Shown here: piece after piece, positions 3,121 through 60,810 of the stretch
How positions within the stretch are numbered: position 1 is the stretch's first letter
Layout of the letters: every line of letters begins with the position of its first letter
Source of the DNA: Pristiophorus japonicus
Taxonomy: Eukaryota
Direction: 5' to 3'
NCBI RefSeq assembly: GCF_044704955.1
Contig: NC_091977.1
Location: forward strand, 200,322,001-200,386,000
Length of the DNA: 64,000 nucleotides
Notes under the pieces: generated by a model
Told to the model about the DNA's origin: nothing
The model's input: the letters and a program-made list of their open reading frames with translations, nothing else
The model's database searches: none
Position numbers and translations under genes: made by a program

Positions 3121-3124
3121 CATG

Positions 3125-11594: not shown

Positions 11595-11814
11595 GTCCCC
11601 GATGATGGGAATATAACAAAATAGCAATCATCAACCACTAGCTGCCAACACTGAAACCCCAGCGCTAAACTCTCGAGCTTTTTGAGTGTATCAATTAAAA
11701 ACTGAATGCCAGAAGCCCAAACCCAAGGTTGCAAATTTGGACGGTGGTTCCTATTTTCTGTATCCTCTGGCTCAGTCTGTTCACTGAAGGAAGGCGTCTA
11801 AGATTGGAGAAAGG
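11595..11814 (+). other. SV2C: Predicted 5' UTR part of the SV2C first coding exon
   Basis: Polypyrimidine tract and acceptor (TTCTTTTGTTGTGCTAG|G) at 11594/11595, upstream of the ATG. Confidence 0.55.
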
Positions 11815-12385
11815 ATGGATGATGCTTACAGGGACAGGACTACCCTGATGAGGGGTGCCAAAGACATTGCCAAGGAAGTTAAGAAGCAAACAGTAAAGAA
11901 AGCAAACAAAGGAGCAGACTACACACAGGATGAATACTCTAAGACATCTTATGCTAATTTTCAAGATGATGAGGGCTACAACTATCGTGGAGGGACATAT
12001 GGAGAAGAACCTCATGAAGATGAAGGATCAAGTGATGCTACTGAAGGTCACGATGAGGAGGATGAGATTTATGAAGGGGAGTACCAGGGAATCCCAGATA
12101 TGGGCCAAAGGAAGGAGAACCAGGTCGCCATAGGACAACCTGTTTCAGATGAATACAAGGACCGCGAGGAGCTGGATGCTGAGAGGAGGGCCGACGAGGA
12201 GGAGCTGGCGCAGCAGTATGAGCTGATCATTCAGGAGTGTGGGCACGGCCGCTTCCAGTGGGCACTGTTCTTTGTGCTGGGATTGTCTCTCATGGCTGAT
12301 GGAGTGGAAGTATTTGTGGTGGGTTTCGTCCTGCCAAGTGCCGAGACGGATATGTGTGTAGAAAACTCCAGTACAGGATGGCTGG
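11815..12385 (+). CDS. SV2C: Synaptic vesicle glycoprotein 2C, first coding exon (N-terminal acidic domain plus TM1)
   Basis: MDDAYRDRTTLMRGAKDIAKEVKKQTVKK...EGHDEEDEIYEGEYQGIP...ERRADEEELAQQYELIIQECGHGRFQWALFFVLG..MADGVEVFVVGFVLPSAETD matches SV2C. Ends at a phase-1 donor G|GTGAGT (12385/12386). Confidence 0.96.
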
Positions 12386-13031
12386 GTGAGTAACTAAATT
12401 CATCTTTATTCCTTTGAATTCCAATCCATTTTCCTTCCAAGAACAAAGCTGTATGTCACCTTGAGTTATATTTTGTAAGCTATCATTCAGTTTTATGATT
12501 TTGTCCTGCACAAGTCCAAAATTACATTGACTTTACCATCATTAAACTATTTGCAAAAAATATAAATATAAATGGAAAATGCGATCGTGTTTCTTGTTGT
12601 TAATAACCACCGTCTGAGATGACTAGGAGAAAATACTAAAATGCTATAACTCCGTAGTTGGTTTACTGCAATAGCATTGGTTTAGCAATATGTATTCATG
12701 TTTAAAAAAACAACCTTACAAAAGTGTTGTTAAGACTAAACTTTGGCGTGTATTTTCAACTGTGGTTATTTTTGAGACACTATCTGAGACAGATAAAATA
12801 TGCAAAAACAAATGCTGACCATCACAGCAATTACAAGGTGCAGATGTCATCATGGACAAGTACTGTGTTGTCTTTCAAATATAAATTATACAATGTCTTC
12901 AGTGTATCAGTATTTGAAAGAATTTCAGCTTTTAAAAATGAATTGTTTCACATTGTTACCATAACATCAAGTTTGGCCACTAAATGGATACATGTAGAAC
13001 CAGATCTCTGATAAATAATGAAAATATAAGA

Positions 13032-22719: not shown

Positions 22720-22887
22720 CACACTACATTGGTTCAGGTACTGTGGGGGATTCAGCACCCAGATAGTCATTACCATCTCTCATGTGAGTGAAGCCATGAA
22801 GCAGTAACTTTACTCACTGTGGTCTGCCATTGAACAAAGGGGCAACACTGGTGGAATATTCACTGGAGACCCCAATTACACAGACAT

Positions 22888-23828
22888 AGATAAGTTTGCT
22901 GATGATACAAAGATGGGAGGAAAAGCAATGTGTGAGGAGGACACAAAAAATCTGCAAAAGGACATAGACAGCCTAAGTGAATGAACAAAAATTTGGCAGA
23001 TGGAGTATAATGGTGGAAAGTGTGAGGTTATGCACTTTGGCAGAAAAAATCAAAGAGAAAGTTATTATTTAAATGGAGAAAGATTGAAAAGTGCCGTAGT
23101 ACAGCGGGACCTGGGGGTATTTGTGCATGAAACACAAAAGGTTAGTATGCAGGTACAGCAAGTGATCAGGAAGGCCAATGGAATCTTGGTCTTTATTGCA
23201 AAGGGGATGGAGTCTAAAAGCAGAGAAGTCTTGCTACAGTTATACAGGGTATTGGTGAGGCCACACCTGGTATACTGCGTGCAGTTTTGGTTTCCATATT
23301 TACGAAAGGATATATTTTCATTGAAGGCTGTTCAGAGAAGGTTCACTAGGTTGATTCCAGAGATGAGGAGGTTGACTTATGAGGAAAGGTTGAGTCGGTT
23401 GGGTCTCTGGAATTCAGAAGAATGAGAGGTGATCTTATCGAAACATATAAGATTATGAGGGGGCTTGACAAGGTGGATGCAGAGAGAATGTTTCCACTGA
23501 TGGGGGGAGACTAGAACTAGGGACATAATCTTAGAATAAGGGTCCGCCCATTTAAAATTGAGATGAGGAGAAATTTATTTGCCCAGAGGATTGTAAATCT
23601 GTGGAATTTGCTGCCTCAGAGAGCTGTGGAAGCTGAGACATTAAATAAATTTAAGAAAGAGATGACAGTTTCTTAACCGAGAAGGGAATAAGGGGTTATG
23701 GGGAGCGGGCGGGGAAGTGGACCTGAGTCCATGATCGGATCAGCCAAGATCGTATTAAATAGCGGAGTAGGCTCGAAGGGCTGTATGGCCTACTCCTGCT
23801 CCTATTTCTTATGTTCTTTTGTTCTTAT
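22888..23828 (+). mobile_element. CR1 LINE 3' fragment (second subfamily)
   Basis: KFADDTK..KCEVMHFGRKN..RDLGV..LVRPHL; (TTCTTATG)-like tail. Confidence 0.92.
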
Positions 23829-24667
23829 ACTCCCACTCGAAGCTGAAAGATGTAGTCATGCCTGGTGTCAACTTTGTTTGAAGAACAGTTACAACCCTCC
23901 ATGAGGGACACATTCGGAGACACCTTTTTTTACCCTCAGATTGATTAGTGGACATTGTGCATAGATACTTTCCAGCAATGATACGCATAAAGTTACACAT
24001 GTATTGAATTCATGCCAGATGACGAAAAGCTGCTGTCGGAGAGGAATATTTAGAGAACAGTGCCAAGCACCATGAACTCGCCCCTGAAGTGCCCTTTTGA
24101 GACTGGTGATTAGGATTTTGTTTGAGGCACACATTGGTATTCCAGAGCGCAGATGTGGATTTTTGATAAAAAGGGGAAGCAGCTGCAAGAAGGGAGAGAT
24201 CCAGCTCCATCAATCTATCACTCAGTAAACAGGAGCAAGAGCTGAGCCTCATAATGGGCATGGCTCAGATGCAGATCTGAATTAAGCACTTGGTGATGAA
24301 TCAGCCTGGTATAAGACATCTAAAATATCGAGGAGGCTGACACAATGCATGCTGCCCTGTGTAAGTCCTTTATTTACACCAATGGTGGATTGTATAATAG
24401 CCAGCTTGGCTAATTAATGGAAACCTACAAGGTAAACCCTGTCACTGGAGGCAGGAATTCAGCCCAATTGGCTCCAGATAACTCAACAAGCTAAAGCCTA
24501 ATGAGTAGGGTGGACAAGAAGCAGGAAGTTCTTGTGATTTAGTGCTCTAAATCATCAAACTGTATGGTGTTGCAATAGACCTGCTGCCTGGGGTAATAAA
24601 TTCTGTGAGGCTGCACCTTTTACCTCCTCTGCACACCTGGGTTGACTTCTCTTCCTGCTCCACAGTC

Positions 24668-25115
24668 ACCATCATCATCATAGGAGGTCCCTCAAACGAG
24701 GATGACTTGCTTCCACATGAGTTCACAGATGTTTCAATGAAGGATCTGATGTACCAGTCCTGAACTCCAATTGAAGGGGTGGAAGATGCCTGTGCGTAGA
24801 CTGGAGACCAGTTCTGCTGCACGGACCTAGTGCGCACACATATTGCAGTGTGGGCTGGCCCGTGCTGCCCCTGGGCCCTCGGCTCTTCTGGGCCCCGTAC
24901 CTTGATTTGCCGCACCTCTGCCACGATCTCTCGCCGTTCCTCTGCCACAAACATTCGCTGCATCTCTGCCACGATCTACCTCCGCACCAAGCATTCGCCG
25001 CACCTCTGCCATGTCCTTCCCGCTCCTTTGCTTTACCAGGGCACCACCGATGCTCCTGCCCACGCTTCAAACAGCGACCTGGGTCCTGATGACGTCACCC
25101 AGTTGCCCACCTCCA
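24668..25115 (-). mobile_element. Non-autonomous RTE-tailed retroelement (SINE-like) with internal CCTCTGCCAC repeats
   Basis: Minus-strand 3' end GTGGAAGCAAGTCATCCTCGTTTGAGGGACCTCCTATGATGATGATG matches the RTE LINE tails at 10130 and 28155. A second copy lies at 57876..58114. Confidence 0.75.
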
Positions 25116-25262
25116 CAATAATCTATTATCAATGGCCACTGCACCCTCCTCTCAGGCAGAAAACTCATCTGCACTATTAACTTCTTTCACTGCTATGGTG
25201 ACACATCCAAATGTTCTCCTTCATTAAACTCACTCCAGCTCTGACCTGGAGCTAAATACCCA

Positions 25263-25899
25263 GGGCTAGAATTTCCATTGGCTTACCACCTAGTTTCTGG
25301 GAGTATTGGCCATTGTAGGCGATAACCAGGTGAGCGAGAAATTCCTTACCTGAGTTACGCAGCGGTTTCGAGGTACTGCTGGGGAGCAGACTGCTGGCGT
25401 GCATCGTCCTCAGATTGCCCCGGCACGATATTTGGCTCAGCAGTGACCCGTAGATAAGTTTTAAAAAACGAGAATTAGCGGAGCTGGGCGGTAGGTGAGT
25501 AGCTTTGCAAGACAAAGGTTAGTAATTGGATTTTTACTCATTATTTTTAAATTCTGTTGTGGTGATTTAGGTTAAAGGGGTCTGGAGAATGTTTTAATGA
25601 TTTTTTGTTCGGTTTTTTGAAGAAATATTTTTCGTGTTTTTCTGCTCCTGGGCCCAACCTGCAGCCTCAAGGTAAATTTTTCGTGAGTTTTTAATTTATC
25701 GCCCATTTTCTTTAGGAACCACCCAATCGACCCTAAATTCCATTTTTTCGCCATGAATCGGGGTGCAACGCCCATTTCTTTCGCTGGGCGGATTTCTTTT
25801 TGGGGGGGGGGGGAGTTTTCTTTGACGATAATCTTGGGAATCTTAGTGGTCTTTTGGGCGGCAATCGGACGCTGGCGGGCTGATAGGAAATTCTAGCTG
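25263..25899. mobile_element. GC-rich MITE
   Basis: TIRs GGGCTAGAATTTCC ... GGAAATTCTAGCTG. Confidence 0.68.
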
Positions 25900-25996
25900 C
25901 AGAATGTCACATGATTGCATCACTTAATGATTTTCACAAATTACTAAGTAAAACTTGGCTTTTAAATTACTTTTCACTAATACTGGTCAACCCATT

Positions 25997-27106
25997 AGAA
26001 ACATAGAAACATAGAAAATAGGTACAGGAGTAGGCCATTCGGCCCTTCGAGCCTGCACCACCATTCAATAAGATCATGGCTGATCATTCACCTCAGTACC
26101 CCTTTCCTGCTTTCTCTCCATACCCCTTGATCCCTTTAGCCGTAGGGGCCACATCTATCTCCCTCTTGAATATATCCAACGAACTAGCATCAACAACTCT
26201 CTGCGGTAGAGAATTCCACAGGTTAACAACTCTCTGAGTGAAGATGTTTCTCCTCATCTCTGTCCTAAATGGCTTACCCCTTATCCTTAGACTAAGTCCC
26301 CTGGTTCTGGACTTCCCCAACATCGGGAACATTCTTCCTGTATCTAACCTGTCCAGTCCCATCAGAATTTTATATGTTTCTATGAGATCCCCTCTCATCC
26401 TTCTAAACGCCAGTGAATACAGGCCCAGTCGATCCAGTCTCTCCTCATATATTAGTCCTGCCATCCCGGGAATCAGTCTGGTGAACCTTCGCTGCACTCC
26501 CTCAATAGCAAGAACGTCCTTCCTCAGATTAGGAGACCAAAACTGCACACAATATTCCAGGTGAGATATCACCAAGGCCCTGTACAACTGCAGTAAGACC
26601 TCCCTGCTCCTATACTCAAATCCCCTAGCTATGAAGGCCAACATACCATTTGCCGCCTTCACCGTCTGCTGTACCTGCATGCCAACTTTCAACGACTGAT
26701 GTACCATGACACCCAGGTCTTGTTGCACTTCCCCTTTTCCTAATCTGCCGCCATTCAGATAATATTCTGCCTTCGTGTTTTTGCCACCAAAGTGAATAAC
26801 TGCACATTTATCCACGTTATACCGCATCTGCCATGCATTTGCCCATTCACCTAACCTGTCCAAGTCACCCTGCAGCCTCTTAGTATCCTCCTCACAGCTC
26901 ACACCACCACCCAGCTTAGTGTCATCTGCAAACTTAGAGATATTATACTCAATTCCTTCATCTAAATCACTAATGTATATTGTAAATAGTTGGGTCCCAG
27001 CACTGAGCCCTGCGGCACCCCACTAATCACTGCCTGCCATTCTGAAAAGGGCCCGTTTATCCCGACTCTGTTTCCTGTCTGCCAACCAGTTCTCTATCCA
27101 TGTCAG
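25997..27106 (-). mobile_element. CR1 LINE, 5'-truncated
   Basis: 269-aa open C-terminal ORF2 (26093..26902); [10 protein letters not shown] and KFADDTK upstream; (TAGAAACA)n tail. Confidence 0.94.
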
Positions 27107-34575: not shown

Positions 34576-35228
34576 TTTTTTTAAATTCTCTAGGGATTCT
34601 GCAAGTGTCCTACTGAAGTTACAGCAGGAGACACGGAGAACACCTATGGAATTTCAGGGCCTATATATGTTACACTGTAGTCCTTTAAAAATAAAACATA
34701 ATTTCTGGTTATTAACATAGTATTACATAGTATTTACAACACAGAAACAGCCATTCGGCCCAACAGGTCCATATAAATTATTTTACTTTTAGTTTCCATG
34801 TGGGACCTTGCTGTGTGCAAATAGGTTACTGTGTTTTTTTACATTACAACAGTAACTCATTGGCTGGGAAGTTGTAATGTCCTGAGGATATAAAAGGCAT
34901 TATACAAATGAAAGCCGTTATTGACATGGGATCCAACACCAAGCGACAGGCCAGTCAATTAAGATGCAGAAGAAGTAATTTAAAGGTATCAAAGGGATTT
35001 TACCCAGGCACTTACCATTTTACCAAGTTTCCAACAAGTTTGCCATGCCTCGGGTTTCACGCCAAGTAAGTGTGTTGGGTTCGCAATGATTCTGCTTTTC
35101 ATTGCCTAGTTGACAGCTGCAGAAGTGGTATAGAAACATAGAAACATAGAAAATAGGTGCAGGAGCAGGCCATTCAGCCCTTCTAGCCTGCACCGCCATT
35201 CAATGAGTTCATGGCTGAACATGAAACT

Positions 35229-38210
35229 TCAGTACCCCCTTCCTGCTTTCACGCCATACCCCTTGATCCCCCGAGTAGTAAGGACTTCATCTAACTCCCT
35301 TTTGAATATATTTAGTGAATTGGCCTCAACTACTTTCTGTGGTAGAGAATTCCACAGGTTCACCACTCTCTGGGTGAAGAAGTTTCTCCTTATCTCGGTC
35401 CTAAATGGCTTACCCCTTATCCTTAGACTGTGACCCCTGGTTCTGGACTTCCCCAACATTGGAAACATTCTTCCTGCATCCAACCTGTCCAAACCCGTCA
35501 GAATTTTAAACGCTTCTATGAGGTCCCCTCTCACTCTTCTGAACTCCAGTGAATACAAGCCCAGTTGATCCAGTCTTTCTTGATAGGTCAGTCCCACCAT
35601 CCCGGGAATCAGTCTGGTAAATCTTCACTGCACTCCCTCAATAGCAAGAATATCCTTCCTCAAGTTAGGAGACCAAAACTGTACACAATACTCCAGGTGT
35701 GGCCTCACCAAGGCCCTGTACAACTGTAGCAACACCTCCCTGCCCCTGTACTCAAATCCCCTCGCTATGAAGGCCAACATGCCATTTGCTTTCTTAACCG
35801 CCTGCTGTACCTGCATGCCAACCTTCAATGACTGATGTACCATGACACCCAGGTCTCGTTGCACCTTCCCTTTTCCTAATCTGTCACCATTCAGATAATA
35901 GTCTGTCTCTCTGTTTTTACCACCAAAGTGGATAACCTCACATTTATCCACATTATACTTCATCTGCCACGCATTTGCCCACTCACCTAACCTATCCAAG
36001 TCACTCTGTAGCCTCATAGCATCCTCCTCGTAGCTCACACTGCCACCCAACTTAGTGTCATCCGCAAATTTGGAGATACTACATTTAATCCCCTCGTCTA
36101 AATCATTAATGTACAATGTAAACAGCTGGGGCCCCAGCACAGAACCCTGCGGTACCCCACTAGTCACTGCCTGCCATTCCGAAAAGTACCCATTTACTCC
36201 TACTCTTTGCTTCCTGTCTGACAACCAGTTCTCAATCCACGTCAGCACACTACCCCCAATCCCATGTGCTTTAACTTTGCACATTAATCTCCTGTGTGGG
36301 ACCTTGTCGAAAGCCTTCTGAAAGTCCAAATATACCACATCAACTGGTACTCCTTTGTCCACTTTATTGGAAACATCCTCAAAAAATTCCAGAAGATTTG
36401 TCAAGCATGATCTCCCTTTCACAAATCCATGCTGACTTGGACCTATCATGTCACCATTTTCCAAATGCGCTGCTATGACATCCTTAATAATTGATTCCAT
36501 CATTTTACCCACTACTGAGGTCAGGCTGACCGGTCTATAATTCCCTGCTTTCTCTCTCCCTCCTTTTTTAAAAAGTGGGGTTACATTGGCTACCCTCCAC
36601 TCGATAGGAACTGATCCAGAGTCAATGGAATGTTGGAAAATGACTGTCAATGCATCCGCTATTTCCAAGGCCACCTCCTTAAGTACTCTGGGATGCAGTC
36701 CATCAGGCCCTGGGGATTTATCGGCCTTCAATCCCATCAATTTCCCCAACACAATTTCCCGACTAATAAAGATTTCCCTCAGTTCCTCCTCCTTAATAGA
36801 CCCTCTGACCACTTTTATATCCGGAAGGTTGTTTGTGTCCTCCTTAGTGAATACTGAACCAAAGTACTTGTTCAATTGGTCTGCCATTTCTTTGTTCCCC
36901 GTTATGACTTCCCCTGATTCTGACTGCAGGGGACCTACGTTTGTCTTTACTAACCTTTTTCTCTTTACATACCTATAGAAACTTTTGCAATCCGCCTTAA
37001 TGTTCCCTGCAAGCTTCTTCTCGTACTCCATTTTCCCTGCCCTAATCAAACCCTTTGTCCTCCTCTGCTGAGTTCTAAATTTCTCCCAGTCCCCAGGTTC
37101 GCTGCTATTTCTGGCCAATTTGTATGCCATTTCCTTGGCTTTAATACTATCCCTGATTTCCCTAGATAGCCACGGTTGAGCCACCTTCCCTTTTTTATTT
37201 TTACGCCAGACAGGAATGTACAATTGTTGTAATTCATCCATGCGGTCTCTAAATGTCTGCCATTGCCCATCCACAGTCAACCCCTTAAGTATCATTAGCC
37301 AATCTATCTTAGCCAATTCATGCCTCATACCTTCAAAGTTACCCTTCTTTAAGTTCTGGACCATGGTCTCTGAATTAACTGTTTCATTCTCCATCCTAAT
37401 GCAGAATTCCACCATATTATGGTCACTCTTCCCCAAGGGGCCTCGCACAATGAGATTGCTAATTAATCCTCTCTCATTACACAACACCCAGTCTAAGATG
37501 GCCTCCCCCCTAGTTGGTTCCTCGACATATTGGTCTAGAAAACCATCCCTTATGCATTCCAGGAAATCCTCCTCCACCGTATTGCTTCCAGTTTGGCTAG
37601 CCCAATCTATGTGCATATTAAAGTCACCCATTATAACTGCTGCACCTTTATTGCATGCACTCCTAATTTCCTGTTTGATGCCCTCCCCAACATCACTACT
37701 ACTGTTTGGAGGTCTGTACACAACTCCCACTAACGATTTTTGCCCTTTGGTGTTCTGCAGCTCTACCCATATAGATTCCACATCATCCAAGCTAATGTCT
37801 TTCCTAACTATTGCATTAATCTCCTCTTTAACTAGCAATGCTACCCCACCTCCTTTTCCTTTTATTCTATCCTTCCTGAATGTTGAATACCCCTGGATGT
37901 TGAGTTCCCAGCCCTGATCATCCTGGAGCCACGTCTCCGTAATCCCAATCACATCATATTTGTTAACATCTATTTGCACAGTTAATTCATCCACCTTATT
38001 ACGGATACTCCTTGCATTAAGACACAAAGCCTTCAGGCTTGCTTTTTTAACACCCTTTGTCCTTCTAGAATTTTGCTGTACAGTGGCCCTTTTTGTTCTT
38101 TGCCTTGGGTTTCTCTGCCCTCCACTTTTCCTCATCTCCTTTCTGTCTTTTGCTTTTGCCTCATTTTTGTCTCCCTCTGTCTCCCTGTATAGGTTCCCAT
38201 CCCCCTGCAA
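35229..38210 (-). pseudogene. CR1 ORF2 (APE endonuclease plus RT) with a single premature TGA at 35625..35627
   Basis: NARSIRNK, ITETWL, VYRPP, GDFN, LDWVL, SDHN (endonuclease); [35 protein letters not shown] (RT). EGVQ*R here versus EGVQRR in other copies. Confidence 0.95.
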
Positions 38211-38212
38211 TA

Positions 38213-38764
38213 TTAGTTTAACTCCTCCCCAACAGCACTAGCAAACACTCCCCCTAGGACATTGGTTCCGGACCTGCCCAGGTGCAGACCGTCCGGTTTG
38301 TACTGGTCCCACCTCCCCCAGAACCGGTTCCAATGCCCCAAGAATTTGAATCCCTCCCTGCTGCACCACTGCTCAAGCCATGTATTCATCTGCGCTATCC
38401 TGCGATTCCTACTCTGACTAGCACGTGGCACTGGTAGCAATCCCGAGATTACTACTTTTGAGGTCCTACTTTTTAATTTAGCTCCTAGCTCCTTAAATTC
38501 TTTTCGTAGGACCTCATCCCTTTTTTTACCTATGTCGTTGGTACCAATGTGCACCACGACAACTGGCTGTTCTCCCTCCCATTTCAGAATGTCCTGCACC
38601 CGCTCCGAGACATCCTTGACCCTTGCACCAGGGAGGCAACATACCATCCTGGAGTCTCGGTTGCATCCGCAGAAACGCCTATCTATTCCCCTCACCATCG
38701 AATCCCCTATCACTATCGCGCTCCCACTCTTTTTCCTGCCCTCCTTTGCAGCAGAGCCACCTAC
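38213..38764 (-). pseudogene. CR1 ORF1 C-terminal SGNH/GDSL esterase domain (5'-truncated)
   Basis: IGDSMVRG, CLPGA, HIGTNDI, DGLHL motifs. Confidence 0.9.
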
Positions 38765-43600: not shown

Positions 43601-43821
43601 GTCATGAGTAGGGGAGAGAGTAGAGAATAATTGATGCACTGTACCTCTGACCTTTCAGAGCATTGTCTGGTAAATGGGAGATATACAAATAATGGACACA
43701 CAATTAAAAGTATCAACTATGGACGTTACGTTATACAGCGGGATCAGACACCAACATGCTGACCTCCACTCATTGAAAGCACATTCACTGTTAAAATAAG
43801 TAATAATTTGGAGAAGTACAT

Positions 43822-45160
43822 TAGAAACATAGAAACATAGAAAATAGGTGCAGGAGCAGACCATTCGGCCTTTTGAGCCTGCACTACCATTCAATATGAT
43901 CATGGCTGATCATGCAACTTCAGTATCCCACTCCCGCCTTCCCTCCATATCCCCTGATCCCCTTAGCTGTAAGGGCCACATCTAACTCCATCTTGAATAT
44001 ATCCAATGAACTGGACTCAACAACTTTCTGTGGTAGAGAATTCCACAGGTTCACCACTCTCTAGGTGAAAAAGTTTCTCCTCATCTCAATTCTATATGGC
44101 TTACCCCTTATCCTTAGACTGTGACCCCTGGTTCTGGACTTCCCCAACATTGGGAACATTCTTCCTGCATCTAACCTGTCCAGTCCTGTCATAATTTTAT
44201 AAGTTTCTATGAGATCACCTCTCATTCTTCTAAATTCCAGTGAGTATAAGCCTAGTCGATCCAGTCTTTCTTCATATGCCAGTCCTGCCATCCCGGGAAT
44301 TAGTCTGGTGAACCTTCGCTGCACTCCCTCAATAGCAAGCATGTCCTTCCTCAGATTAGGAGACCAAAACTGCACACAATAATCAAGGTGTGATCTCACC
44401 AAGGCTCTGTACAACTGCAGTAAGACCTCCCTGCTCCTATACTCAAATCCCATAGCTATGAAGGCCAGCATGCCATTTGCTTTCTTTACTGCCTGCTGTA
44501 CCTGCATGCCTACCTTCAGTGACTGATGTACCATGACACCCAGGTCTCGTTGCACCTCCCCTTTTACTAATCTGTCACCATTCAGATAATAATCTGCCTT
44601 CCTGTTTTTGCCACCAAAGTGGATAACCTCGCATTTATCCACATTATACTGCATCTGCCATGCATTTGCCCACTCACCTAACCTGTCCAAGTCACACTGC
44701 AGCCTCTTGATATCCTCCTCACAGCTCATACTGCCACCCAGCTTAGTGGCACCTGCAAATTTGGAGATATTACACTCAATTCCTTCGTCCAAATCATTGA
44801 TGTATATTGTAAATAGCTGGGGTCCCAGCATTGAGCCCTGCGGCACCCCACTGGTCACTGCCTGCCATTCTGAACTGGACCCGTTTATTCCCACTTTCTG
44901 TTTACCAACCAGTCCTCTATCCACGTCAATACATGAATCCCAATAACACGTGCCTGAATTTTGCACACTAATCTCTTGCGTGGGACCTTGTCAAAAGCCT
45001 TTTGAAAGTCCAAATACGCTACACTCACTAGTTCTCCCTTATCCACTCTACTAGTTACATCCTCAAAAAACTCTAGATTTGTTAAGCATGATTTCCCTTT
45101 CTGCAATCCATGCTGACTTCAACCGATCTTGTCACTGCTTTCCAAATGCACTGCTATTAC
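43822..45160 (-). mobile_element. CR1 LINE, 5'-truncated
   Basis: 301-aa RT/C-terminal ORF; (TAGAAACA)n tail at 43822. Confidence 0.93.
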
Positions 45161-47455
45161 ATAGACATAGACATAGACATAGAAATAGATGCAGGAGTAG
45201 GCCATTCAGCCCTTCGAGCCTGTACCACCATTCAATAAGATCATGGCTGATCATTCACCTCAGTACCCCTTTCCTGCTTTCTGTCCATACCCCTTGATCC
45301 CTTTAGCCATAAGGGCCACATCTAACTCCCTTTTGAATATATCCAATGGACTGGCATCAACAATTCTCTGCGGTAGAGAATTCCACAGGTTAACAACTTT
45401 CTGAGTGAAGAAGTTTCTCCTCATCTCAATCCTAAATGGCTTACCCCTTATCCTTAGACTGTGTCCCCTGGTTCTGGACTTCCCCAACATCGGGAACATT
45501 CTTCCTGTATCTAACCTGTCCAGTCCCATCAGAATTTTATATGTTTCTATGAGATCCCCTCTCATCCTTCTAAACTCCAGTGAATACAGGCCCACTCGAT
45601 CCAGTCTCTCCTCATATGTCAGTCCTGTCATCACAGGAATCAGTCTGGTGAACCTTCACTGCACTCCCTCAATAGCAAGAACGTCCTACCTCAGATTAGG
45701 AGACCAAAACTGAACACCATATTCCAGATGAGGCCTCACTAAGGCGCTGTACAACTGCAGTAAGACCTCCCTGCTCCTATACTCAAATCCCCTAGCTATG
45801 AAGGCCAACATACTATTTGCCTTCTTCACTGCCTGCTGTACCTGCTTGCCAACTTTCAATGACTGATGTACCATGACAACCAGGTCTCATTGCACCTCCC
45901 CTTTTCCTAATCTGCCGCCATTCAGATAATATTCTGCCTTCGTGTTTTTGCCTCCAAAGTGGATAACCTCACATTTATCCATATTATACTGCATCTGCCA
46001 TGCATTTGCCCATTCACCTAACCTGTCCAAGTCACCCTGCAGCTTCTTAGCATCCTCCTCACAACTCACACCGCTACCCAGCTTAGTGTCATCTGCAAAT
46101 TTGGAGATATTACACTAAATTCCTTCATCTAAATCATTGATGTATATTGTAAATAGTTGGGGTGTCAGCACTGAGCCCTGTGGCACCCCATTAGTCACTG
46201 TCTGCCATTCTGAAAAGGACGCATTTATCCCGACTCTCTGCTTCCTATCTGCCAACCAGTTCTCTATCCATGTCAGTGCATTACCCCCAATACCATGTGC
46301 TTTAATTTTGCACACCAATCTCTTGTGTGGGACCTTGTCAAAAGCCTTTTGAAAGTCCAAATACACCACATCCACAGGTTCTCCCTTGTCCACTCTACTA
46401 GTTACATCCTCAGAAAATTCCAGAAGATCTGTCAAGCATGATTTCCTTTTCATATATCCATGCTGACTTGGACCCATCCTGTCACTGCTTTCCAAATGCG
46501 TTGCTATTTCATCTTTAGTAATTGATTCCAACATTTTCTCCACTACTGATGTCAGGCTAACTGGTCTATAATTACCCATTTTCTCTCTCTCCTTTTTTAA
46601 AAAGTGGTGTTACATTAGCTCCCCTCCAGTCCATAGGAACTGATCCAGAGTCGATAGACTGTTGGAAAATGATCACCAATGCATCCACTATTTCTAGGGC
46701 CACTTCCTTAAGTACTCTGGGATGCAGACTATCAGGCCCTGGGGATTTATCGGCCTTCAATCCCATCAATTTCCCTAACACAATTTCCCGCCTAATAAGG
46801 ATTTCCTTCATTTCCTCCTTCTCACTAGACCCTCGGTCCCCTAGTATTTCCGGAAGGTTATTTGTGTCTTCCTTCATGAATACAGAAGCAAAGTATTTGT
46901 TCAACTGGTCTGCCATTTCTTTATTCCCCATTATAAATTTACCTGAATCTGACTGCAAGGGACCTACGTTTGTCTTCACTAATCTTTTTCTCTTCACATA
47001 TCTATCGAAGCTTGTACAGTCAGTTTTTATGTTCCCTGCAAGCTTCCTCTCATACTCTATTTTCCCCCTCCTAATTAAACCCTTTGTCCTCCTCTGCTGA
47101 ATTGTAAATTTCTCCCAGTCCTCAGGTTTGCTGCTATTTCTGGCCAATTTATATGTCTCTTCCTTGGATTTAACACTATCCTTAATTTCCCTTGTTAGCC
47201 ACGGTTGAGCCACCTTCCTCATTTTATTTGTACTCCAGGCAGGGATGTATAATTGTTGAAGTTCATCCATGTGATTGTTAATTGTTTGCCATTGCCTATC
47301 CACCGTCAACCCTGCCATATTAGTTTAACGCCTCCTCAACAGCACTAGCAAACACTCCACCTCGGACATAGGTTCTGGTCCTGCCCAGGTGCAGACCGTC
47401 CGGTTTGTACTGGTCCCACCTGCCCAGAACCGGTTCCAATGCCCTAGGAATTTGA
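45160..47455 (-). mobile_element. CR1 LINE with internal deletion of the endonuclease domain
   Basis: Tail at 45160; RT region 45260..47318. At ~47315 the sequence jumps directly to the ORF1 3' end (KFLGHWNRFW...DGLHLG-like). Confidence 0.9.
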
Positions 47456-49971: not shown

Positions 49972-50925
49972 TCAACCCTCAGGAGACTGAAGAGTAATTT
50001 TGCTTTCTGAAAAGTAAATGTTTCCAATTGGACTTCTTTAAAGACGACCTGTTTTTCTCTCTCTATCTATATGATTATCAAGTTAAAATATTTAAATGTT
50101 TTAAAATATAAGTATATTAGGGTAAATTTTACAAATTCATACTCCTGGTGCAGAACTTCAGCCACTGGGACCCTATATTCGGAATTTGAGCATAGACATC
50201 AGCGGGCTCTGCCGCATTTTCCATTATTCTCATAAGGAGAGGCTCCTGATAAAATTACCCACATAGTCTTACCACACTAGTATATTGCCTTCTAGTCAGG
50301 TACCTGTCAAATGAATTGTATTATTTTAAATGGTCACTGAGATCCTCAGAGCGAGTACATGACACTATAATTTGTCTTAAATAGTATTATTTACTACATT
50401 TTATATTAACAAGTACATACACGGATTTTAATGAAATGTATACATTACAACCAGGTTCTGTTTGTTGGATAAAGTGTCAAACCCAGATTTAACAAAATCA
50501 GAATCTAATACATAGAATTACATAGAATTTACAGCAGACATAGGCCATTTGGCCCAACTGGTCTGTGCTGGTGTTTATGCTCCACACAAGCCTCCCCCCA
50601 CCCCTACAACATCGAACCCTATCTGCATATTCTTCTAATACAAGAACATCTAAGCTTTTCTTTGTGGGTCACACAACTGCATACCGTAAAATATTGGGTG
50701 CCACATGTTGGCCTGGAATTCCTCAAGCGGTTCTCCTGATTTCGCGCCATAACCTTGGCAGGAGATTGGTGGAATCCGCAGAGAAAGAGCACAAATGGCA
50801 GAATTTATAAGCCATACAACTTTAATCAATATTCCGTTAACCTGCAAATATCTCAAGCTGTGGATGCAAATAACTCTTATATTCTGAAATGTATTCACTA
50901 ATTAGGTAATGACACTAAAAACAAC

Positions 50926-51602
50926 TGTTAGCGTTAGTGTTTTCTTAGAAGAATCACTCAACACTCAGGGTCGGTTCCAATGCTGAAGCAGCTTTTATTA
51001 CGCTCAGCGGGAAGGAAAAACTCAGGACCGTATCCAGGTTTCTCTTCACAGAACAAAGAGTTACATGTACCTTTATATGTTTCACAACAGTTACAAAACA
51101 GTTTACTACAGTTACACAGCCCATCACGGCTGGACACAAGCCAATCACAACGATTATAGATTACATATAGGTTCTTTAACCCAATAGAATTCTCCTACTA
51201 TCCAGGGAACCATATGTTCGGTTATTGTCAGCTTGGGCTGATCGATGGCTTTATAGGTTCTCTCCCTAGTTCTTTCATCTGGGAGAAATAATTGGTATAT
51301 AGCCTTGTTTACAGCAAATGGTTTCCCTCTTATCTTTCTTCCTGAAATAATTGGTTTCATGGCCTTGTTCACAGGAGATGGTTTCCTTCTTATCTCTGTC
51401 TTCCCAGGCATTCCTACAGTGGGCCTCACAGGGTTATTGCTCGGTCAGTGAACGTTCAACAGTTCACAGTTTGACTACCTGATTTCCCATAATGCCTGGG
51501 CAGCCATTTTATGTGTGTGTCCATTTAAGCTTATGTGAGTTCTAAATATCCAGCAGGTGCCTAATGCCTAAGTCTATATATATCTTTCGACTCTCTACAA
51601 CA
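50926..51602 (-). repeat. 3' LTR
   Basis: No difference seen from 56418..57094; AATAAA (minus) at 50994..50999; preceded by the PPT. Confidence 0.96.
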
Positions 51603-51603
51603 A

Positions 51604-51614
51604 TTCCCCCTTTC
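51604..51614 (-). other. Polypurine tract GAAAGGGGGAA
   Basis: Lies 1 nt upstream of the 3' LTR TG on the minus strand. Confidence 0.88.
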
Positions 51615-51739
51615 GGTAAAGGGACTAGTCCTAGTCCCCTTTTAACCGAAATACTGCCTTTATCTGATATTTGTGCACGGCCCAGTATTCCTTGCCTCAA
51701 CGTGCTGGCCAGTCACGCGGTTTCAGGAGTTCCGGTTGC

Positions 51740-53754
51740 TTAAATCAAATTAACAAAGGCTAGCTCCTCCCGTCCCCTTATCAAACAGGCTTGTTTAATA
51801 TCCAGGGAACGGTGATTAGTCCGTTTCCGCCATTTGTGGCGCCTGCATACCTGGCAGGCCATCACGCCCCATGTTATTGCTAAGATTAATTGTATACCGA
51901 CCAGTGTGTGTGAAATAATTCGGATCCATGGGTGGATGTTCACATTTATTCCCCAGTCCCAGACCTTTCTCCACCAACTCTGACTTTGTAAGTCTACCTC
52001 GGTATCTTCTTCCAGTTCTTTGATTTTAGTTTGTAGCTGGTGATAGATTTTTACGGATTGCCCCACTCTGAGCCTTACCTCCCGTAATACTTCGGTTAGA
52101 TGTGGGATAGGGACCTGCTCTGGCTCGTCATAATCCTGTAAATGATCATGGAGCTGATCGGTTACCTCGATAACTTCGGACTTCCGGCGCCTAACCTGGG
52201 TGATATGCGCTTGCCTGATCGCGGCAGGTCGTAGTGGTGTAAAGCAAAAGTTTGGCTGCGGTATAGGGCACTGCAGGTCATTATACTGGTATGAACGCTC
52301 TGTGGTAGAGACGCAGTATCTTCCCCTCCCTCCGTAGCCTGCCCTCGCGAAGTGCATGTGTGCGGGCACTATTTCTAGTACACACCCGTTGGTTCGGTTA
52401 AACCCGCACTCGTCTAGTTCACCTCGGCCCACCGGGTGAGGGCATACTGTGATTTCCCCCCCTTTGCTTGCAATCTGCTAGGGAAATCCCAGTAAGTATG
52501 TTGTTTTGACGAACGGCAGAGGTGGTGGTTAGGTAGTAGCGTATGGAGACATTTTCCCGTATTACTCCAATATTCTCTCGTTGGTATAGGGGGAACGGCC
52601 CTGAGTCCGGCGTGACTATAGGGATCATCAGGACTGTCCCTATCCCGGTAATCCTACCCATCTGGCAATCTGGAATTGCTGGGTATACTCTGGTCAGTCC
52701 CTTCAGAGTACAATTATCCAGTGTCCCCCTTTGGTTAGCCAACTGAGCTAAATCTTCCTGTTCTCTATCAATGAGGTGATTGATGGTTCTGGCGTGAGCT
52801 TCCATGACTGAGATGCCATCCAGCTGGATTTTGGCACCCTCCTTTCCTAGGTTGGCTTGGTCTTCCTGGTTTTGCTCCACCCTCTCCAATAACCCCTTCA
52901 TCACCCCTCTAAGCTGTTCCACCCTCTCATTTAATTCTTGTATGTCTATCGAGTTCACTACGGAGGTCTCTGTATTGAAAACGGTAGCAACATCATTAAC
53001 TATTTCCCTCTTCATCCTGGGGGCTAACCCCTGTCCCCGGAACTTACTGGCACCCATGGCATCGGCAGCCTGCTGCATTACAACTTTACTTAATACATTG
53101 TACATCTTCCTTGACTGTTCTGTACAGTATTCCAGCATCTGGATGCCTGAAATATTGATCAGAACAGGCACAATTTCATGTCTAACATTATCATACAACA
53201 GTTCCCCCTCGCTGTACATTACAATCCCATTCTCTGATCCCTTCGTAGTTATGGGGCAAGGCAGTTCCTCGGGCAATGTAGTGATTCTTATGGGGCGCGG
53301 TGTCGGAGGGGGTGAGAAACATACATACAATGATATTGCAGCCGCCCCCGCCTCCTCGTAATACCCACACAGCCCCACTCCCTTCTTGCGGATGACTGAT
53401 TGCTGGGATTGTCCCGGAGGCGCGCAAATTATGCCGAAAGTACATTCATCAGGCCCTTTGACATCCCTCCGTTTAATGCATCTGCTCCTTATACCCGTGG
53501 AGCACTGTACACATACTCTTATTCTTATTAGGATTCTTATTAGGATTCACTTGTAACCATGCATTAAAATAAGTCCTGTCCTTGCTCCAGTCCTTGGCTG
53601 CTGGGATGCACATTCCGGCCGTTAAATTAAACAAGACTCCATAGTTCATATAGTTGTTTATTTCCAGCGTGCTCTGCTGTCCGTCGGTGTTGCCCAGGGT
53701 ACGTGCATGTCGCAGGGCTATCCAGATTACGAGTAGCGCCGTTCGTATTCCCAT
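51740..53754 (-). pseudogene. env: Envelope/fusion glycoprotein gene (~670 codons reconstructed) with two frameshifts
   Basis: Signal peptide MGIRTALLVIWIAL (ATG 53754), Cys-rich N-terminal part, furin site RMKR (53007..53018), heptad/coiled-coil segment, Cys-rich C-terminal part, W-rich SWWRKVWDW, TM ISHTLVGIQLILAITWGVMAC, basic RRHKWRKR. Frameshifts at a 12-bp duplication (~53515-53550) and in a G7 run (52456..52462). Confidence 0.85.
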
Positions 53755-56355
53755 TCCGGTAAGTATTATCTGTAATTTTAAACAGACGGCCTGGTCGTCA
53801 CCAGGGGTTAAGTTTTTTGCTCTACGAGAGTCCCTGTCACCCTGCAAAATCAGAAGCACAAGGTTATAATCGAACCATTTCGAGCTGAATCTGTAGGGCA
53901 TGCGCCCGTGTCTTTACTCACTTAAATATTACCCAAACTCCTATGACCAAGGCCAAAGCTATTCCTCCAAACATCGCTGTCTGCTTTACCATTAGGTTGG
54001 GTTTGTGGACTACACCTACCCACCGTGGGGTACATTGGCTCTATTGCCAGAGGTGACGGTGCTATGGCTGCGCACTGCACTATCCGTCTAGTCCCGTTAT
54101 CTCTTCCAGCCTGTTTATCTTCGCTTTTAACTCTTCAATTTGTTTTATTGAATATCTATTTCTTTATTGTATCAGGCAAGTATTATTACATAAGCTAGTT
54201 CTGTTTTTATTTTTGTTTCCTCTGTTAGGTGAGTCTTTTTTTTCTATTAAGAAATCCAAATTAATAATGTTCAGTATAAAACGGCTGTCAATGGAAAGGG
54301 TTAACTCCTTTCCAGGTTTGTAAGAAGACCTGATGTCATTACGTGACTTCACGTAATCATCTGAAAAAAAAAAGTCTTTGTGCCTTCAAAACTGGCTTCG
54401 AAATTAGGAATCCGTTAAAAACAGCATAAATCATTAGAGTAAACTCCAATGTTTTCTTAACTTCTAATTCAAGTACTTGCCAAAGAATTTTTTTTTTTTT
54501 TAATTGTTTTAAAACAAGACCACACATACAATAGCAATTTTGTTTACTGAAATTCAATTCTGTTTTTTTTTATTTCTCTCTTTCTCCTCGTTATCTTCAA
54601 AACCCTCCTGCTTGTTTAGACTGTTCGGGACATTTTTGATAAACACTGTCCATTTTAGAAATCTTTTCAAACTGCATTGAAACTTTTGAAAATTCGAATC
54701 CATGTAGAGTGTTTTTTACTTATTCCAATTATTTTTTTTTCTCTTCTAATTAAACCAATATCTTTTTCACAGCAAACATCAACTAGTATTTAGTAAGTTA
54801 TGTCTTTTTCCATTTAGTCCGTTACATCTTTTTTTTTCCTTTCTTCAAATTAGGTTTTGTATTTTACACGGAGGGTTCGTAACTCCATAAAGTTGTTAAT
54901 TTAAAATCATTTGTTTACTTTCAAAGTGGCGTCTTTATCTTTTTCTTTTTCTCCATAACTGGAATGGAGACCAGCTTTGAGAGTTTGAGTGCTGCCTTTC
55001 GTTATCTCAAAATGCTCCAGTTTCAAAGTCGTTACTAAAGCTTGCTGTTTTTTAACATTTTCCAAAAGTTCCTTTTACACCTTCGCAGATAGCTCGCCAC
55101 TTGCCCAGGAGTTTGACCTGATCAGATTTAATTTAATCTTTTTCTTTTTTTTTTTAATCCACCTCAGTATTTCCTGTGCCTTCTCTGAATATCTCAAAAT
55201 CCCAATTCAAACTTTGTAATTTCAATCTTTATTTAAAACTTTTTTTTTTAGAAGCTCTCTTTTTTTTTTAAGCATTCTTCATCTCATTCCGAGACCAAAT
55301 TTATGTCTTTCAACCCAATCAATCATTGCATGTTTTCTTTCGGCAAGTAAGTGAGCATGTCAAATAAATATTTTGCTCAACAAACCTATTCTTTATTTGT
55401 TTATTTTCCTAGCTCCGTAACTTATCATCCGAATAAATCCACACCTGCGTTTCTAACTTAAATGTCTTAAAACTTCCCACATACAGGACAACATTACAAA
55501 GGGTTTAAAAAAAAGACTTTCACTCTGTTTCTAAAATAAACAGACACTTGCATTCCTCTTCCAACCAGGCTTTCGGAACATGAAAACATAAAAAAATTCA
55601 TTCTGCAGTCAAAAATCACACAGACACTTCTCACTCAACGATTTACAACAGTCTCTCTTCTTGTTTTGGCCGGCTCTATTTTTGGATCCATGACCTTTCA
55701 GGGAATTCGTAGTTTTATCTAAATAATTCCTCACATAACTAATTCCTGAGGATTCCACCCTGCTTTAATCATTTTTTCAATTAGCTTCTTTTGTTTTTCC
55801 GCCAGGTGGCGGGTAAGCGACCCTTCTGGTCCCCACTCGAGTTTACTTGTTTTCATGGCCATTCCTGGGTAGGACTGGTATCGTTAGGAATCTACTCTCA
55901 GAGGTCCGCTTTCTTTCTAGCGCGACTTGTAGTAAACTGTCTCTTGCCTACTGTCAGGTCACAAGTTCTGCTGTTACACAAACTTATACAATTCTTAAAA
56001 ACGCGTTTAAGCAATTCCCGCAGTGCTCTACGTATCCTTAACGACTACCTACCACCGCTCAGCCCGTTGGTCCGACCCTGTTCACAGGTTTGGATTCCGT
56101 TAGCCGCTGTACACCGCTTGGTTCTACCCCGGGGTATTTCAAATTTCACTACTGGGTCCGGAAGATGTCTCTCGGTATCACGATCCCACGGTCTAAGTGT
56201 GTTCCCTACGCCTACTTGGTTCCTGGCCGTCACGTGGGACAAAAGTCCTCTTAATTCAGGCTCAGGCTAGGCGTTTGAGATATTAGACCGTCTCCTCATG
56301 TCGATCAACCAGCTTCCACCTTCCGCACCCTTTATACTTAAAAATTGTTTTTTAT

Positions 56356-56364
56356 ACTCACCCG
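56356..56364 (-). promoter_or_regulatory. Putative major splice donor CGG|GTGAGT
   Basis: Consensus donor ~37 nt downstream of the PBS. Candidate acceptors TTTTGCAG|G (53842) and AATTACAG|A (53770) lie just upstream of the env ATG. Confidence 0.65.
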
Positions 56365-56398
56365 GGTTTTTTCCAAGGGCGTCCAGCGACTCCGGGAA

Positions 56399-56416
56399 AT
56401 CCCGTCGACTACGCCA
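56399..56416 (-). other. Primer-binding site, tRNA-Ser type (TGGCGTAGTCGACGGGAT)
   Basis: Lies 1 nt after the 5' LTR CA; 16/18 match to the complement of the vertebrate tRNA-Ser 3' end as recalled (TGGCGTAGTCGGCAGGAT). Confidence 0.85.
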
Positions 56417-56417
56417 T

Positions 56418-57094
56418 TGTTAGCGTTAGTGTTTTCTTAGAAGAATCACTCAACACTCAGGGTCGGTTCCAATGCTGAAGCAGCTTTTATTACGCTCAGC
56501 GGGAAGGAAAAACTCAGGACCGTATCCAGGTTTCTCTTCACAGAACAAAGAGTTACATGTACCTTTATATGTTTCACAACAGTTACAAAACAGTTTACTA
56601 CAGTTACACAGCCCATCACGGCTGGACACAAGCCAATCACAACGATTATAGATTACATATAGGTTCTTTAACCCAATAGAATTCTCCTACTATCCAGGGA
56701 ACCATATGTTCGGTTATTGTCAGCTTGGGCTGATCGATGGCTTTATAGGTTCTCTCCCTAGTTCTTTCATCTGGGAGAAATAATTGGTATATAGCCTTGT
56801 TTACAGCAAATGGTTTCCCTCTTATCTTTCTTCCTGAAATAATTGGTTTCATGGCCTTGTTCACAGGAGATGGTTTCCTTCTTATCTCTGTCTTCCCAGG
56901 CATTCCTACAGTGGGCCTCACAGGGTTATTGCTCGGTCAGTGAACGTTCAACAGTTCACAGTTTGACTACCTGATTTCCCATAATGCCTGGGCAGCCATT
57001 TTATGTGTGTGTCCATTTAAGCTTATGTGAGTTCTAAATATCCAGCAGGTGCCTAATGCCTAAGTCTATATATATCTTTCGACTCTCTACAACA
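56418..57094 (-). repeat. 5' LTR
   Basis: 677 bp, apparently identical to the 3' LTR; contains two ~60-bp tandem CCAAT-containing repeats and TATAAA. Confidence 0.96.
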
Positions 57095-57165
57095 CAACCC
57101 TTTACGATCTTCTAGGCCTACAAAACTCCAACAGAACAAACCAGCAAATAAAACATATATAAAGT

Positions 57166-58840: not shown

Positions 58841-60007
58841 CAGAAAAATAAGGGTATAAGTCAAATGGGCCTAGCTCCCAATCTCCTCCCACAGCCCTTC
58901 AGTATACAGTAGTTAAGTCATGATTATACAATCATGTATTTTTTTTACAATATTGGCAGCGATTTTGATACTTCATAATATTTATGGATAGTATAGAAGC
59001 AGTACAACAAACCCAAGGATGCAGCAACCCAATGTTACCTCTTAATGCATTAGCTGTGGGCTAACCATGTCATGTCAAAATTGTAGTATATTTAAAATAT
59101 CCAAGGTGAAAATTGTATTATGGGATGTATATTTATATAATAAAAAGTTGTGTGTCTGCAATGTGAGCTGTGATCATGATGTCTCTTGTGACCGTCTATC
59201 AGTTTTCTTCTTTGAATGTCTATCAGTTTCCTTTTTTTCTTATTGTTTAAGTGTATTTTCTTCTCCTCTCTGTGTTTTTCTCATTTCTAATTGGAGATTT
59301 TCTACTTACATTGTGCAAAACTTCCTTCCAAATTTAATGTTATTCATCAATTATTTTTCACCAAAAGAAAATGTTCCCTGTCACATTGTGGCAGCAAAGG
59401 AATTCTGCCCATTCACAGAAAAAAATGAATTTCTTCAAGCTACAGCCACTGTGGCAGTTCTTCACCCACCCTACTATAGACACACTTATTTGTAACACCA
59501 AAAAGCTCTGAATGGGTCCCCTTGATCACATGACCTGATTGCTGATTGGTCCCCTCTGGAATGTGTAATTAGAACCGCCCTGCCTAAGTAATTAGTGACT
59601 TTACAAAGTGTAATTTGAGCCATTCTGACTGCCGACTCCAGACAGAAGAGAGCTCACTTGGAATAGACATGACTTACTCTCACGGGTTAAGACCTTCTCC
59701 CATCCCCCATACAAGTTCCTGCCTCCAACCCCCACCGCCCAAGTGCCTGACCTTCCACCATTCTCCCCGCCCCCCCCACTGCCAAGTTTCTGATAATCAC
59801 AGCGATATTCGAGGCAAACGTCCTGGAGATATCCCAAAAGCCCTAGAAGCAGCTCCAGTGGCAATGAGCTCCACGCGGGATTGTGGTTCGGCCACACTTC
59901 CAGCTTCCTCGTATATCACACGCATGCTCAAAAAGGGGGCAGAGTCCAAGGCGTGCATGGTAGAAGGACACAAAAAAGCTGTTGCAAATAATCACTCCAC
60001 CTTACTA

Positions 60008-60810
60008 AACATAAGAACAAGAAATAGGAGCATGAGTAGGCCATACGGCCCTTCGAGCCTGCTCTGCCATTCAATAAGATCATGGCTGATCATTGACCTC
60101 AACTCCACTTTCCCGCTCGATCCGCATATCCCTTGATTCCCCTCGTGTCCAAAAATCTATCCATCTCAGCCATGAATATATTCAATGACTCAGCATCTAC
60201 AACCCATTGGGATAATGAATTGCAAAGATTCACAACTCTCTGAGTGAAGAAATTCCTCCTCATCTCCGTCTTAAATGACCGACCCCTTATCCTGAGGCTA
60301 TGTCTCCTAGTTCGAGATTTTCCAGCCAGGGGTAACAACCTCTCAGCATCTACCCTGTCAATCCCCTTCAGAATCTTTTAAGTCACAATTAGATCACCTC
60401 AAATCCTTCTAAACTCGAGAGAGTATAGGCCCAATGCACTCAATCTCCCCCCATTGGACAACTCTCTCATCCCAGGGATCAATATAGTGAACCTTTGTTG
60501 CACCGCCTCTAAAACAAGTATGTCCTTTCACAGATAAGGAGACCAAAACTGCACACAGTACTCCAGGTGTGGTCTCATCAAAGCCCTATACAATTGTAGT
60601 ATGTCTTCCTTGCTCTTGTACTCCAACCCCCTTGGAATAAAGGCCAACGTGCCATTTGCCTTCCGAATTGCTTGCTGTACCTGCATGCTAACTCTGTGTG
60701 TTTCCTAAATCTCTCTGGACACCAACATTTAACAGTTTCCCACCATTTAAAAAATATTATGTTTTTCTATTCTTCCTAGCAAACTGAACAACCTCAAACT
60801 TCCTCACACA
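60008..60810 (-). mobile_element. CR1 LINE 3' fragment
   Basis: ACATAAGAACAAGAAATAGG tail; RRNFFTQRVVNL; RPHLEYCVQFWSP. Confidence 0.9.

Follow-up and report, generated by a model that had tools for sequence, protein, structure and literature searches.

In the mouse, approximately 240 copies of the ETn element stand against 100 of its coding partner MusD (PMC6466679), and the commonest ETn/MusD primer-binding site (PBS) deviates from the tRNA at two positions, perfect sites being dispersed over the tree (PMC7472051). VL30 is a non-autonomous class I element that is co-packaged by a helper virus (PMC6466679). In the koala recombinant recKoRV, the 5′ long terminal repeat (LTR) and gag leader and the 3′ env and LTR of an active virus enclose a middle from another source (PMC6112702). 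Here, we describe an endogenous retrovirus (ERV) from a 64,000-nucleotide stretch of the genome of the shark Pristiophorus japonicus (GCF_044704955.1, NC_091977.1, positions 200,322,001 to 200,386,000; referred to as the window, with positions counted from its first letter). An original prediction, made from the letters of the window alone, had pointed to a provirus with LTRs and env, from which pol was missing. With a probability of roughly 0.8, this window element is a recently inserted member of a non-autonomous, high-copy ERV family, has a broken env, and was mobilised by a co-resident, epsilon-like helper.

ERVs clustering with the epsilonretroviruses have been reported from the elephant shark (PMC4422223), and the epsilon Env is structurally apart from other orthoretroviral Env proteins (PMC3758190). 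Lokiretroviruses have an F-like Env with an RXKR site and a reverse transcriptase (RT) that is sister to those of all sampled retroviruses (PMC7947760). Retention of env in high-copy anamniote ERVs has been reported for gamma-type Env (bioRxiv 2021.11.23.469661); further related literature comprises bioRxiv 2023.10.26.564294, PMC4977317, and PMC13709493. A literature search revealed no description of the family presented here, though supplements, which may list it, were outside the scope of that search.

Results

The defective structure recurs at independent insertions

The provirus was located at positions 50926-57094 on the minus strand, with the following parts.

57095..57098, plus strand: right target-site duplication, CAAC
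56418..57094, minus strand: 5′ LTR, 677 bp, same sequence as the 3′ LTR
56399..56416, minus strand: PBS of the tRNA-Ser(AGA) type with two mismatches, by comparison with the host tRNA 3′ end
55863..56398, minus strand: leader with 92-95% identity to the helper leader, likely to carry the packaging signal
near 56362, minus strand: candidate splice donor, by motif only
55740..55862, minus strand: gag stub of about 41 codons, ending where homology to the helper ends
53974..55739, minus strand: A-rich non-coding middle (40% A) in the place of gag-pol, with no helper or Pfam match
53755..53973, minus strand: pol-env spacer with the remnant of a small hydrophobic open reading frame (ORF), which has a 66-codon counterpart in the helper
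near 53842, minus strand: candidate env splice acceptor, by motif only
51740..53754, minus strand: broken, F-protein-like env, from frame analysis and the fold of a natural relative
53524-53547 (approximately), minus strand: first frame break in env
52753, minus strand: in-frame loss of about 40 env codons
52455-52465 (approximately), minus strand: second frame break in env
51604..51614, minus strand: polypurine tract
50926..51602, minus strand: 3′ LTR, 677 bp
50922..50925, plus strand: left target-site duplication, CAAC, by comparison with an empty-site paralogue

The TG...CA-ended LTRs were identical at 677 of 677 positions in an exact alignment, confirming that they show no difference. LTRs, PBS, polypurine tract, and target duplication are all present and gag-pol is absent, as in a non-autonomous ERV. 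The interior had been described as free of RT, RNase H, and integrase motifs; in agreement, a Pfam scan of the interior ORFs gave nothing of note. The expected gene content held for pol, whereas the first 41 or so codons of gag persist. Both the tRNA-Ser PBS and the polypurine tract exist as announced, the former deviating from the 3′ end of host tRNA-Ser(AGA) at 2 of 18 positions. The leader, which had been called GC-rich, has a GC content of about 50% and is rich merely against the 33% of the A-rich middle.

A search of the 5.9 Gb genome with the interior yielded 4,199 candidates, 31 loci of which were scored; 22 of these, the window copy included, were near-full-length with 96-100% identity. 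The parasite copies that were fetched had distinct flanks, their own 4- or 5-bp duplications, and LTR pairs 0-17 bases apart. A 20-base marker of the pol-less interior, carried by 68 of the 69 young parasite loci but by none of 14 helpers or 16 chimeras (the latter two classes are described below), had 2,171 exact matches in the genome, older members included, versus 65 for a helper gag marker. The same defective interior is thus present in many independent insertions, from which it follows that the interior took its present form before the window insertion and was copied as such. The replicating non-autonomous lineage envisaged in the original prediction is supported, and the recurrence of its interior at many loci that a copy count by sequence search was meant to reveal was found. 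Head-to-tail parasite tandem arrays with common LTRs were observed at four loci (L028, L033, L034, L091).

The exact 4-bp CAAC duplication was verified, as both flanks carry CAAC; in addition, a paralogous copy of the surrounding DNA, located at another place on the chromosome, has the 4-base unit just once at the insertion site, in support of a genuine duplication at the window element. Duplications of 4 bp were found in 11 of 51 scored parasite copies, in 1 of 12 helpers, and in 6 of 16 chimeras; all others were 5 bp long (a few scored loci of the family, L001-L110, are duplicates of one insertion). A single integrase is likely to make both lengths. A contig from a DNA run stops exactly at the left junction, with 7 differences in 147 bases; the four differences listed fit a paralogous locus, so the contig is not callable as an empty allele. 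Among the sequencing runs listed with a match, none was of RNA.

Zero differences in 677 bases bound the LTR divergence to <0.44%. At the mutation rate of the epaulette shark (7e-10 per base per generation, PMC10587355), which is not the host's own, identical LTRs permit an age of up to approximately 3 million generations. The provirus is therefore "very young" relative to other copies, though not necessarily in absolute terms. Over 6.2 kb, 15 base differences and 8 gaps separate the provirus from its nearest sibling, whose two LTRs are one mismatch apart.

A coding helper in the same genome

With a public shark Env relative as query, 18 loci were obtained in an env-biased search; 13 of them contained gag-pol, mostly in proviruses of about 9.4 kb. 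In these helpers, gag and pro-pol (approximately 1,180 aa) form one frame divided by a single stop, followed by an env frame of 737-765 codons. Pfam domains of protease, RT, RNase H, and integrase were identified, while Env had no Pfam match. The sequence shared by helper and window element covers bases 1-1,355 of the element and resumes at base 3,122, from where it extends to the end. The window LTR is 96.9-97.1% identical to those of two gag-pol-env copies and 93% identical to that of a third, and the helpers' own LTR pairs are up to 100% identical. A coding partner with the same cis signals is thus present in the same genome, which supports the postulated helper with recent activity in this host.

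Of the 65 genome matches to the helper gag marker, 54 loci were examined. Gag and pol were both open in nine, and all nine contained env, which was open in seven; the six gag-marker loci from which env was absent all had a broken gag-pol.

Helper Pol scored 405 bits to the RT of murine leukaemia virus (MLV) type, compared with approximately 205 bits to both foamy virus and Ty3. RT-RNase H identities were 35% to walleye dermal sarcoma virus (WDSV), 32-38% to gammaretroviruses, 24-26% to foamy viruses, and about 20% to class II; two other library entries matched this region as well or better in part. By these similarity scores, Pol is class I, and we call the helper epsilon-like. A lokiretroviral identity, considered because of the F-like env, was rejected on the strong leaning of Pol toward MLV in the same kind of scores.

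In the helper pol-env spacer, a frame of 66 codons overlaps the end of pol and encodes a hydrophobic stretch. The parasite has a broken counterpart of this frame (window 53870-54060); the coiled-coil-like stretch before it is unrelated and may hint at the donor of the A-rich middle. No fused pol-env protein was found in public data at E ≤ 0.001 among 3,268 candidates, which is weak evidence.

No homology found between the A-rich segment and helper gag-pol

The A-rich middle of 1.77 kb had been taken for the ruined gag-pol of this virus, a view that is not upheld by the comparison with the helper: neither tblastn nor blastn nor nhmmer gave a significant match to the helper. Pfam searches with X at stops gave no match in nine frames (three minus-strand frames for the window copy). 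DNA searches of the host genome with the middle returned family members only among the 40 candidates scored in each. Compared with four older versions, the middle showed about 7% substitutions and 48-59 gaps, 10-17 of which were multiples of three; indels of all lengths fit non-coding DNA.

Older family members have LTRs that are 70-79% identical to the window LTR over part of the length. In four older loci, about half of gag is joined to the same A-rich middle, and in three of these the LTR pairs are 93.6-97.8% identical. The middle replaced gag-pol long ago and outlived several LTR types. G-to-A hypermutation was rejected as the origin of the A-richness, as changes relative to an older middle go in both directions about equally often (17 A>G, 15 G>A); in addition, the middle gives no alignment to helper gag-pol.

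Env is broken in the parasite

The env that the original prediction had called nearly intact carries three lesions in the window copy: a frame break just past the signal-peptide region, a loss in frame of about 40 codons compared with relatives, and a second frame break. Across independent insertions, these lesions show a nested pattern: the first is near-universal in young copies, and the others mark subclades. By frame test, the first break is present in 67 of 70 young parasite loci (the N-terminus being in frame in 3/70) and in 4/4 of the older half-gag forms. End to end, env is open in 2/70 young copies, 0/16 chimeras, 5/24 copies of the older lineage, and 0/4 half-gag forms; several open-env copies came from a search that favoured open env. 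A second parasite lineage, the older one, lost the hydrophobic N-terminus of Env in 8/8 scored copies, and one further copy has no start codon. The hydrophobicity peak of the older-lineage N-terminus is 0-0.17, as against 2.76 in two helpers. The N-terminus has thus been disabled differently in each of three parasite lineages, always within the first 115 or so codons, and none of the parasite lineages seems capable of providing a secreted Env.

The closest relatives of this Env were from sharks. A structural model of a natural relative, of moderate confidence (pLDDT 62.7), had as its best viral match the Env of walleye epidermal hyperplasia virus 1 (WEHV-1, E 3e-13), with WDSV Env at rank 11. 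Matches to the F proteins of respiratory syncytial virus and human parainfluenza virus 3 had E values of 1e-10 to 6e-10 at TM-scores of just about 0.3. The Env family profile matched foamy Env weakly (E 7e-4), and the leads from the structure atlas were of the F family. From these models, the helper Env appears to be of the epsilon type (non-gamma, F-like). Distant Env relatives (22-26% identity; P0020, P0027, P0034, P0037) occur in the bamboo shark and the frogs Pelodytes, Mantella, and Xenopus; the Mantella relative has 16 cluster members, and all are named uncharacterised or hypothetical.

Probable recombination between parasite and helper

A third class of family member of about 8.8 kb, the chimeras, was recognised in 17 of 20 chosen integrase-bearing loci, a non-random choice by common frame length. 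In these, the A-rich middle is joined to helper pol (98% identical) through a short A-rich overlap, with helper pol starting from the protease end; gag is missing and env has a deletion near its start. The LTR pairs of the chimeras are 0-4 bases apart (L071-L082, L085-L089), indicating recent spread.

Env trees were calculated from 62 rows (32 of 64 parasite, 13 helper, 6 of 16 chimera, and 11 of 21 older copies). In neither half of env did the parasite copies group as a single clade: they required 3 label changes in one half and 5 in the other, and placements shifted between the halves. The distance of the window copy to the nearest helper fell from 5.3% at the env 5′ end to 1-2% at the 3′ end. 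Together, the chimeras and the discordant trees point to repeated recombination, as judged from sequence. Co-packaging of two RNAs followed by template switching is the established route to such mosaics.

Selection was measured against column-majority codons. Among shared variants, helper ω values were 0.14 for env, 0.15 for pol, and 0.19 for gag, that is, purifying selection. In parasite env, ω was near neutral for singletons (0.78) and 0.27 for shared variants. Of the 169 shared parasite variants, 135 were also found in helper or chimera copies (62 compared), which points to import by recombination.

Primer-binding site variants

The perfect PBS sequence had 1,099 genomic matches, and five of five that were checked were tRNA-Ser(AGA). 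A second tRNA that would account for the variant PBS was rejected, as the two patterns used gave no tRNA-type match. Variant and perfect sites were counted at 44 versus 15 in parasites, 8 versus 5 in the first 14 helpers, and 9 versus 7 in chimeras. The two-mismatch site is thus the commonest in young copies, the tRNA-perfect version being scattered among them; even the window copy and its nearest sibling, 99.6% identical, differ in this site. Older members have a third type of PBS, which we take to be of the tRNA-Ser(CGA) type. The mismatched PBS may be the mark of source copies, and perfect sites may be produced by copying of the tRNA primer. At G000:C23:18.56-20.47 Mb, the tRNA-Ser(AGA) 3′ motif was seen in long tandem arrays whose repeat unit measures about 1.95 kb.

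Genomic surroundings

The element lies in antisense orientation inside an intron of an SV2 gene, after the following coding exon:

11788..12393, plus strand: frame with the upstream SV2 coding exon, the gene being named from its motifs

The element is flanked by this exon, at about 11.8-12.4 kb, and by further coding exons that start approximately 85 kb past the window end, so that the proposed intronic location stands; the assignment to SV2 and the name SV2C are presumed from motifs. Window positions 22000-27100, 35100-38300, 43800-47400, and 60000-60700 are occupied by several LINE-like repeats that are related to one another, among them one with a frame of 870 codons, and a gypsy-like pol fragment lies at 415-2157; the family names are likewise presumed.

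Discussion

The findings are best explained by a helper with coding capacity for Gag, Pol, and an Env of its own, together with a parasite whose env is likely to be a passenger. The helper would package, reverse-transcribe, and integrate the parasite, which kept LTRs, PBS, leader, and polypurine tract; mobilisation in trans is inferred from the chimeras and the shared ends. Parasite and helper RNA would be co-packaged, mosaics would arise by template switching of the RT, and helper sequence would periodically replace the LTR and 3′ env of the parasite. Such periodic import would make env look conserved though it is unused. Likely reasons for the retention of env DNA are splice or other RNA signals, or the homology itself.

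Several observations weigh against this explanation. Shared env variants confined to parasites had a ratio of 15 synonymous to 15 non-synonymous, compared with 38:110 for parasite-only singletons, which are neutral (Fisher p = 0.015), and the addition of 33 helpers lowered the number of parasite-only shared variants from 43 to 30 without removing the excess. Many parasite copies retain a frame of 570-640 codons 3′ of the first break, and in the open copies (5/24 of the older lineage, 2/70 of the young) the env frame is uninterrupted between the N-terminal motif and the end of the membrane anchor. The copy samples consisted of best-scoring hits and were thus non-random, with a few duplicated loci among them; the gag-marker sample covered 54 of the 65 loci, and the helper count covered marker-bearing helpers but not divergent ones.

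A different explanation is that the parasite makes a selected, truncated Env without signal peptide downstream of the first break, for example, an interfering or regulatory protein. The residual synonymous bias and the long downstream frames would fit such a product, as would the finding that three lineages were each hit differently and in just the first 115 or so codons. Yet subclades with further common downstream breaks, the window copy's included, went on spreading, and parasite-majority codons missing from the other classes are non-synonymous in five cases and synonymous in three. The same bias could also result from import from unsampled or extinct helpers or from parallel CpG changes. 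We consider a signal-less Env product unlikely. The same low probability is assigned to its broader version, in which about 600 codons of an env truncated three times over would be under selection at the protein level, modulating helper or host, with a captured foreign segment in the place of gag-pol.

The original prediction had further proposed that the element supplies a functional envelope to an env-less gag-pol partner. Near-full-length env DNA was indeed kept across more than 2,000 marker matches, and some env frames of an older lineage are open. However, 0 of 9 loci with open gag-pol were without env, and seven of these env genes were open. Only 2 of 70 young parasite env genes are open, the window env carries its three lesions, the older open frames are without a hydrophobic signal, and no chimera env is open (0/16). 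Envelope supply is therefore highly improbable. Least probable of all is that the provirus is unique and shed gag-pol once inserted, or that the LTR identity stems from a collapsed assembly: the DNA-run comparison rested on short contigs, but the same interior and breakpoints occur at many loci with different flanks, the nearest sibling is distinct and has a mismatch between its LTRs, and sibling LTR pairs 0-17 bases apart demonstrate that the assembly does resolve LTRs.

If the helper-parasite explanation holds, a cartilaginous-fish genome contains the complete system, from helper and parasite to recombinants and older intermediates. Systems of this general kind are already well known, and the surprise is moderate. 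Retention of env DNA need not imply env function, since recombination with a helper can refresh the sequence. EAV-HP is a pol-deleted, env-bearing precedent. The two-mismatch PBS pattern of mouse ETn/MusD/IAP is extended to a distant vertebrate, in which the idea of silencing by tRNA fragments can be tested. The helper also connects the short F-like Env of shark and frog ERVs with epsilonretroviral, foamy, and paramyxoviral fusogens.

With the epsilonretroviruses WDSV and WEHV-1, the helper shares a similar Env model and RT-RNase H. It differs from them in an Env of about 710 aa versus 1,159-1,317 aa in the walleye entries, in having no long accessory ORFs 3′ of env, and in its serine primer. 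The F-like Env is common to the helper and the lokiretroviruses, whereas helper Pol leans toward MLV, and cartilaginous fishes are absent from the host classes named in PMC7947760.

By analogy, the shark parasite appears to work like ETn/MusD and VL30/MLV and to be built like recKoRV. As in ETn/MusD, a non-coding LTR element outnumbers its coding partner and a two-mismatch PBS is dominant. The mouse pair, however, is class II and env-less, whereas the shark system combines a class I Pol with an F-like Env; the shark helper keeps env, the parasite retains env DNA at almost full length, and parasite marker matches outnumber those of the helper by about 33:1. VL30 is likewise a helper-dependent non-autonomous class I element; it is not known to carry env or to share its LTR with its helper, in contrast to the shark parasite, which has LTR, leader, and env in common with its helper. 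In recKoRV, ends from KoRV flank a PhER middle in the same way as helper-like ends flank the A-rich middle of the shark parasite. Unlike the shark element, recKoRV has a middle with a known donor and keeps just the 3′ end of env; in the shark, the searches found no donor, nearly the whole of env was kept, and the middle persisted through the turnover of LTRs.

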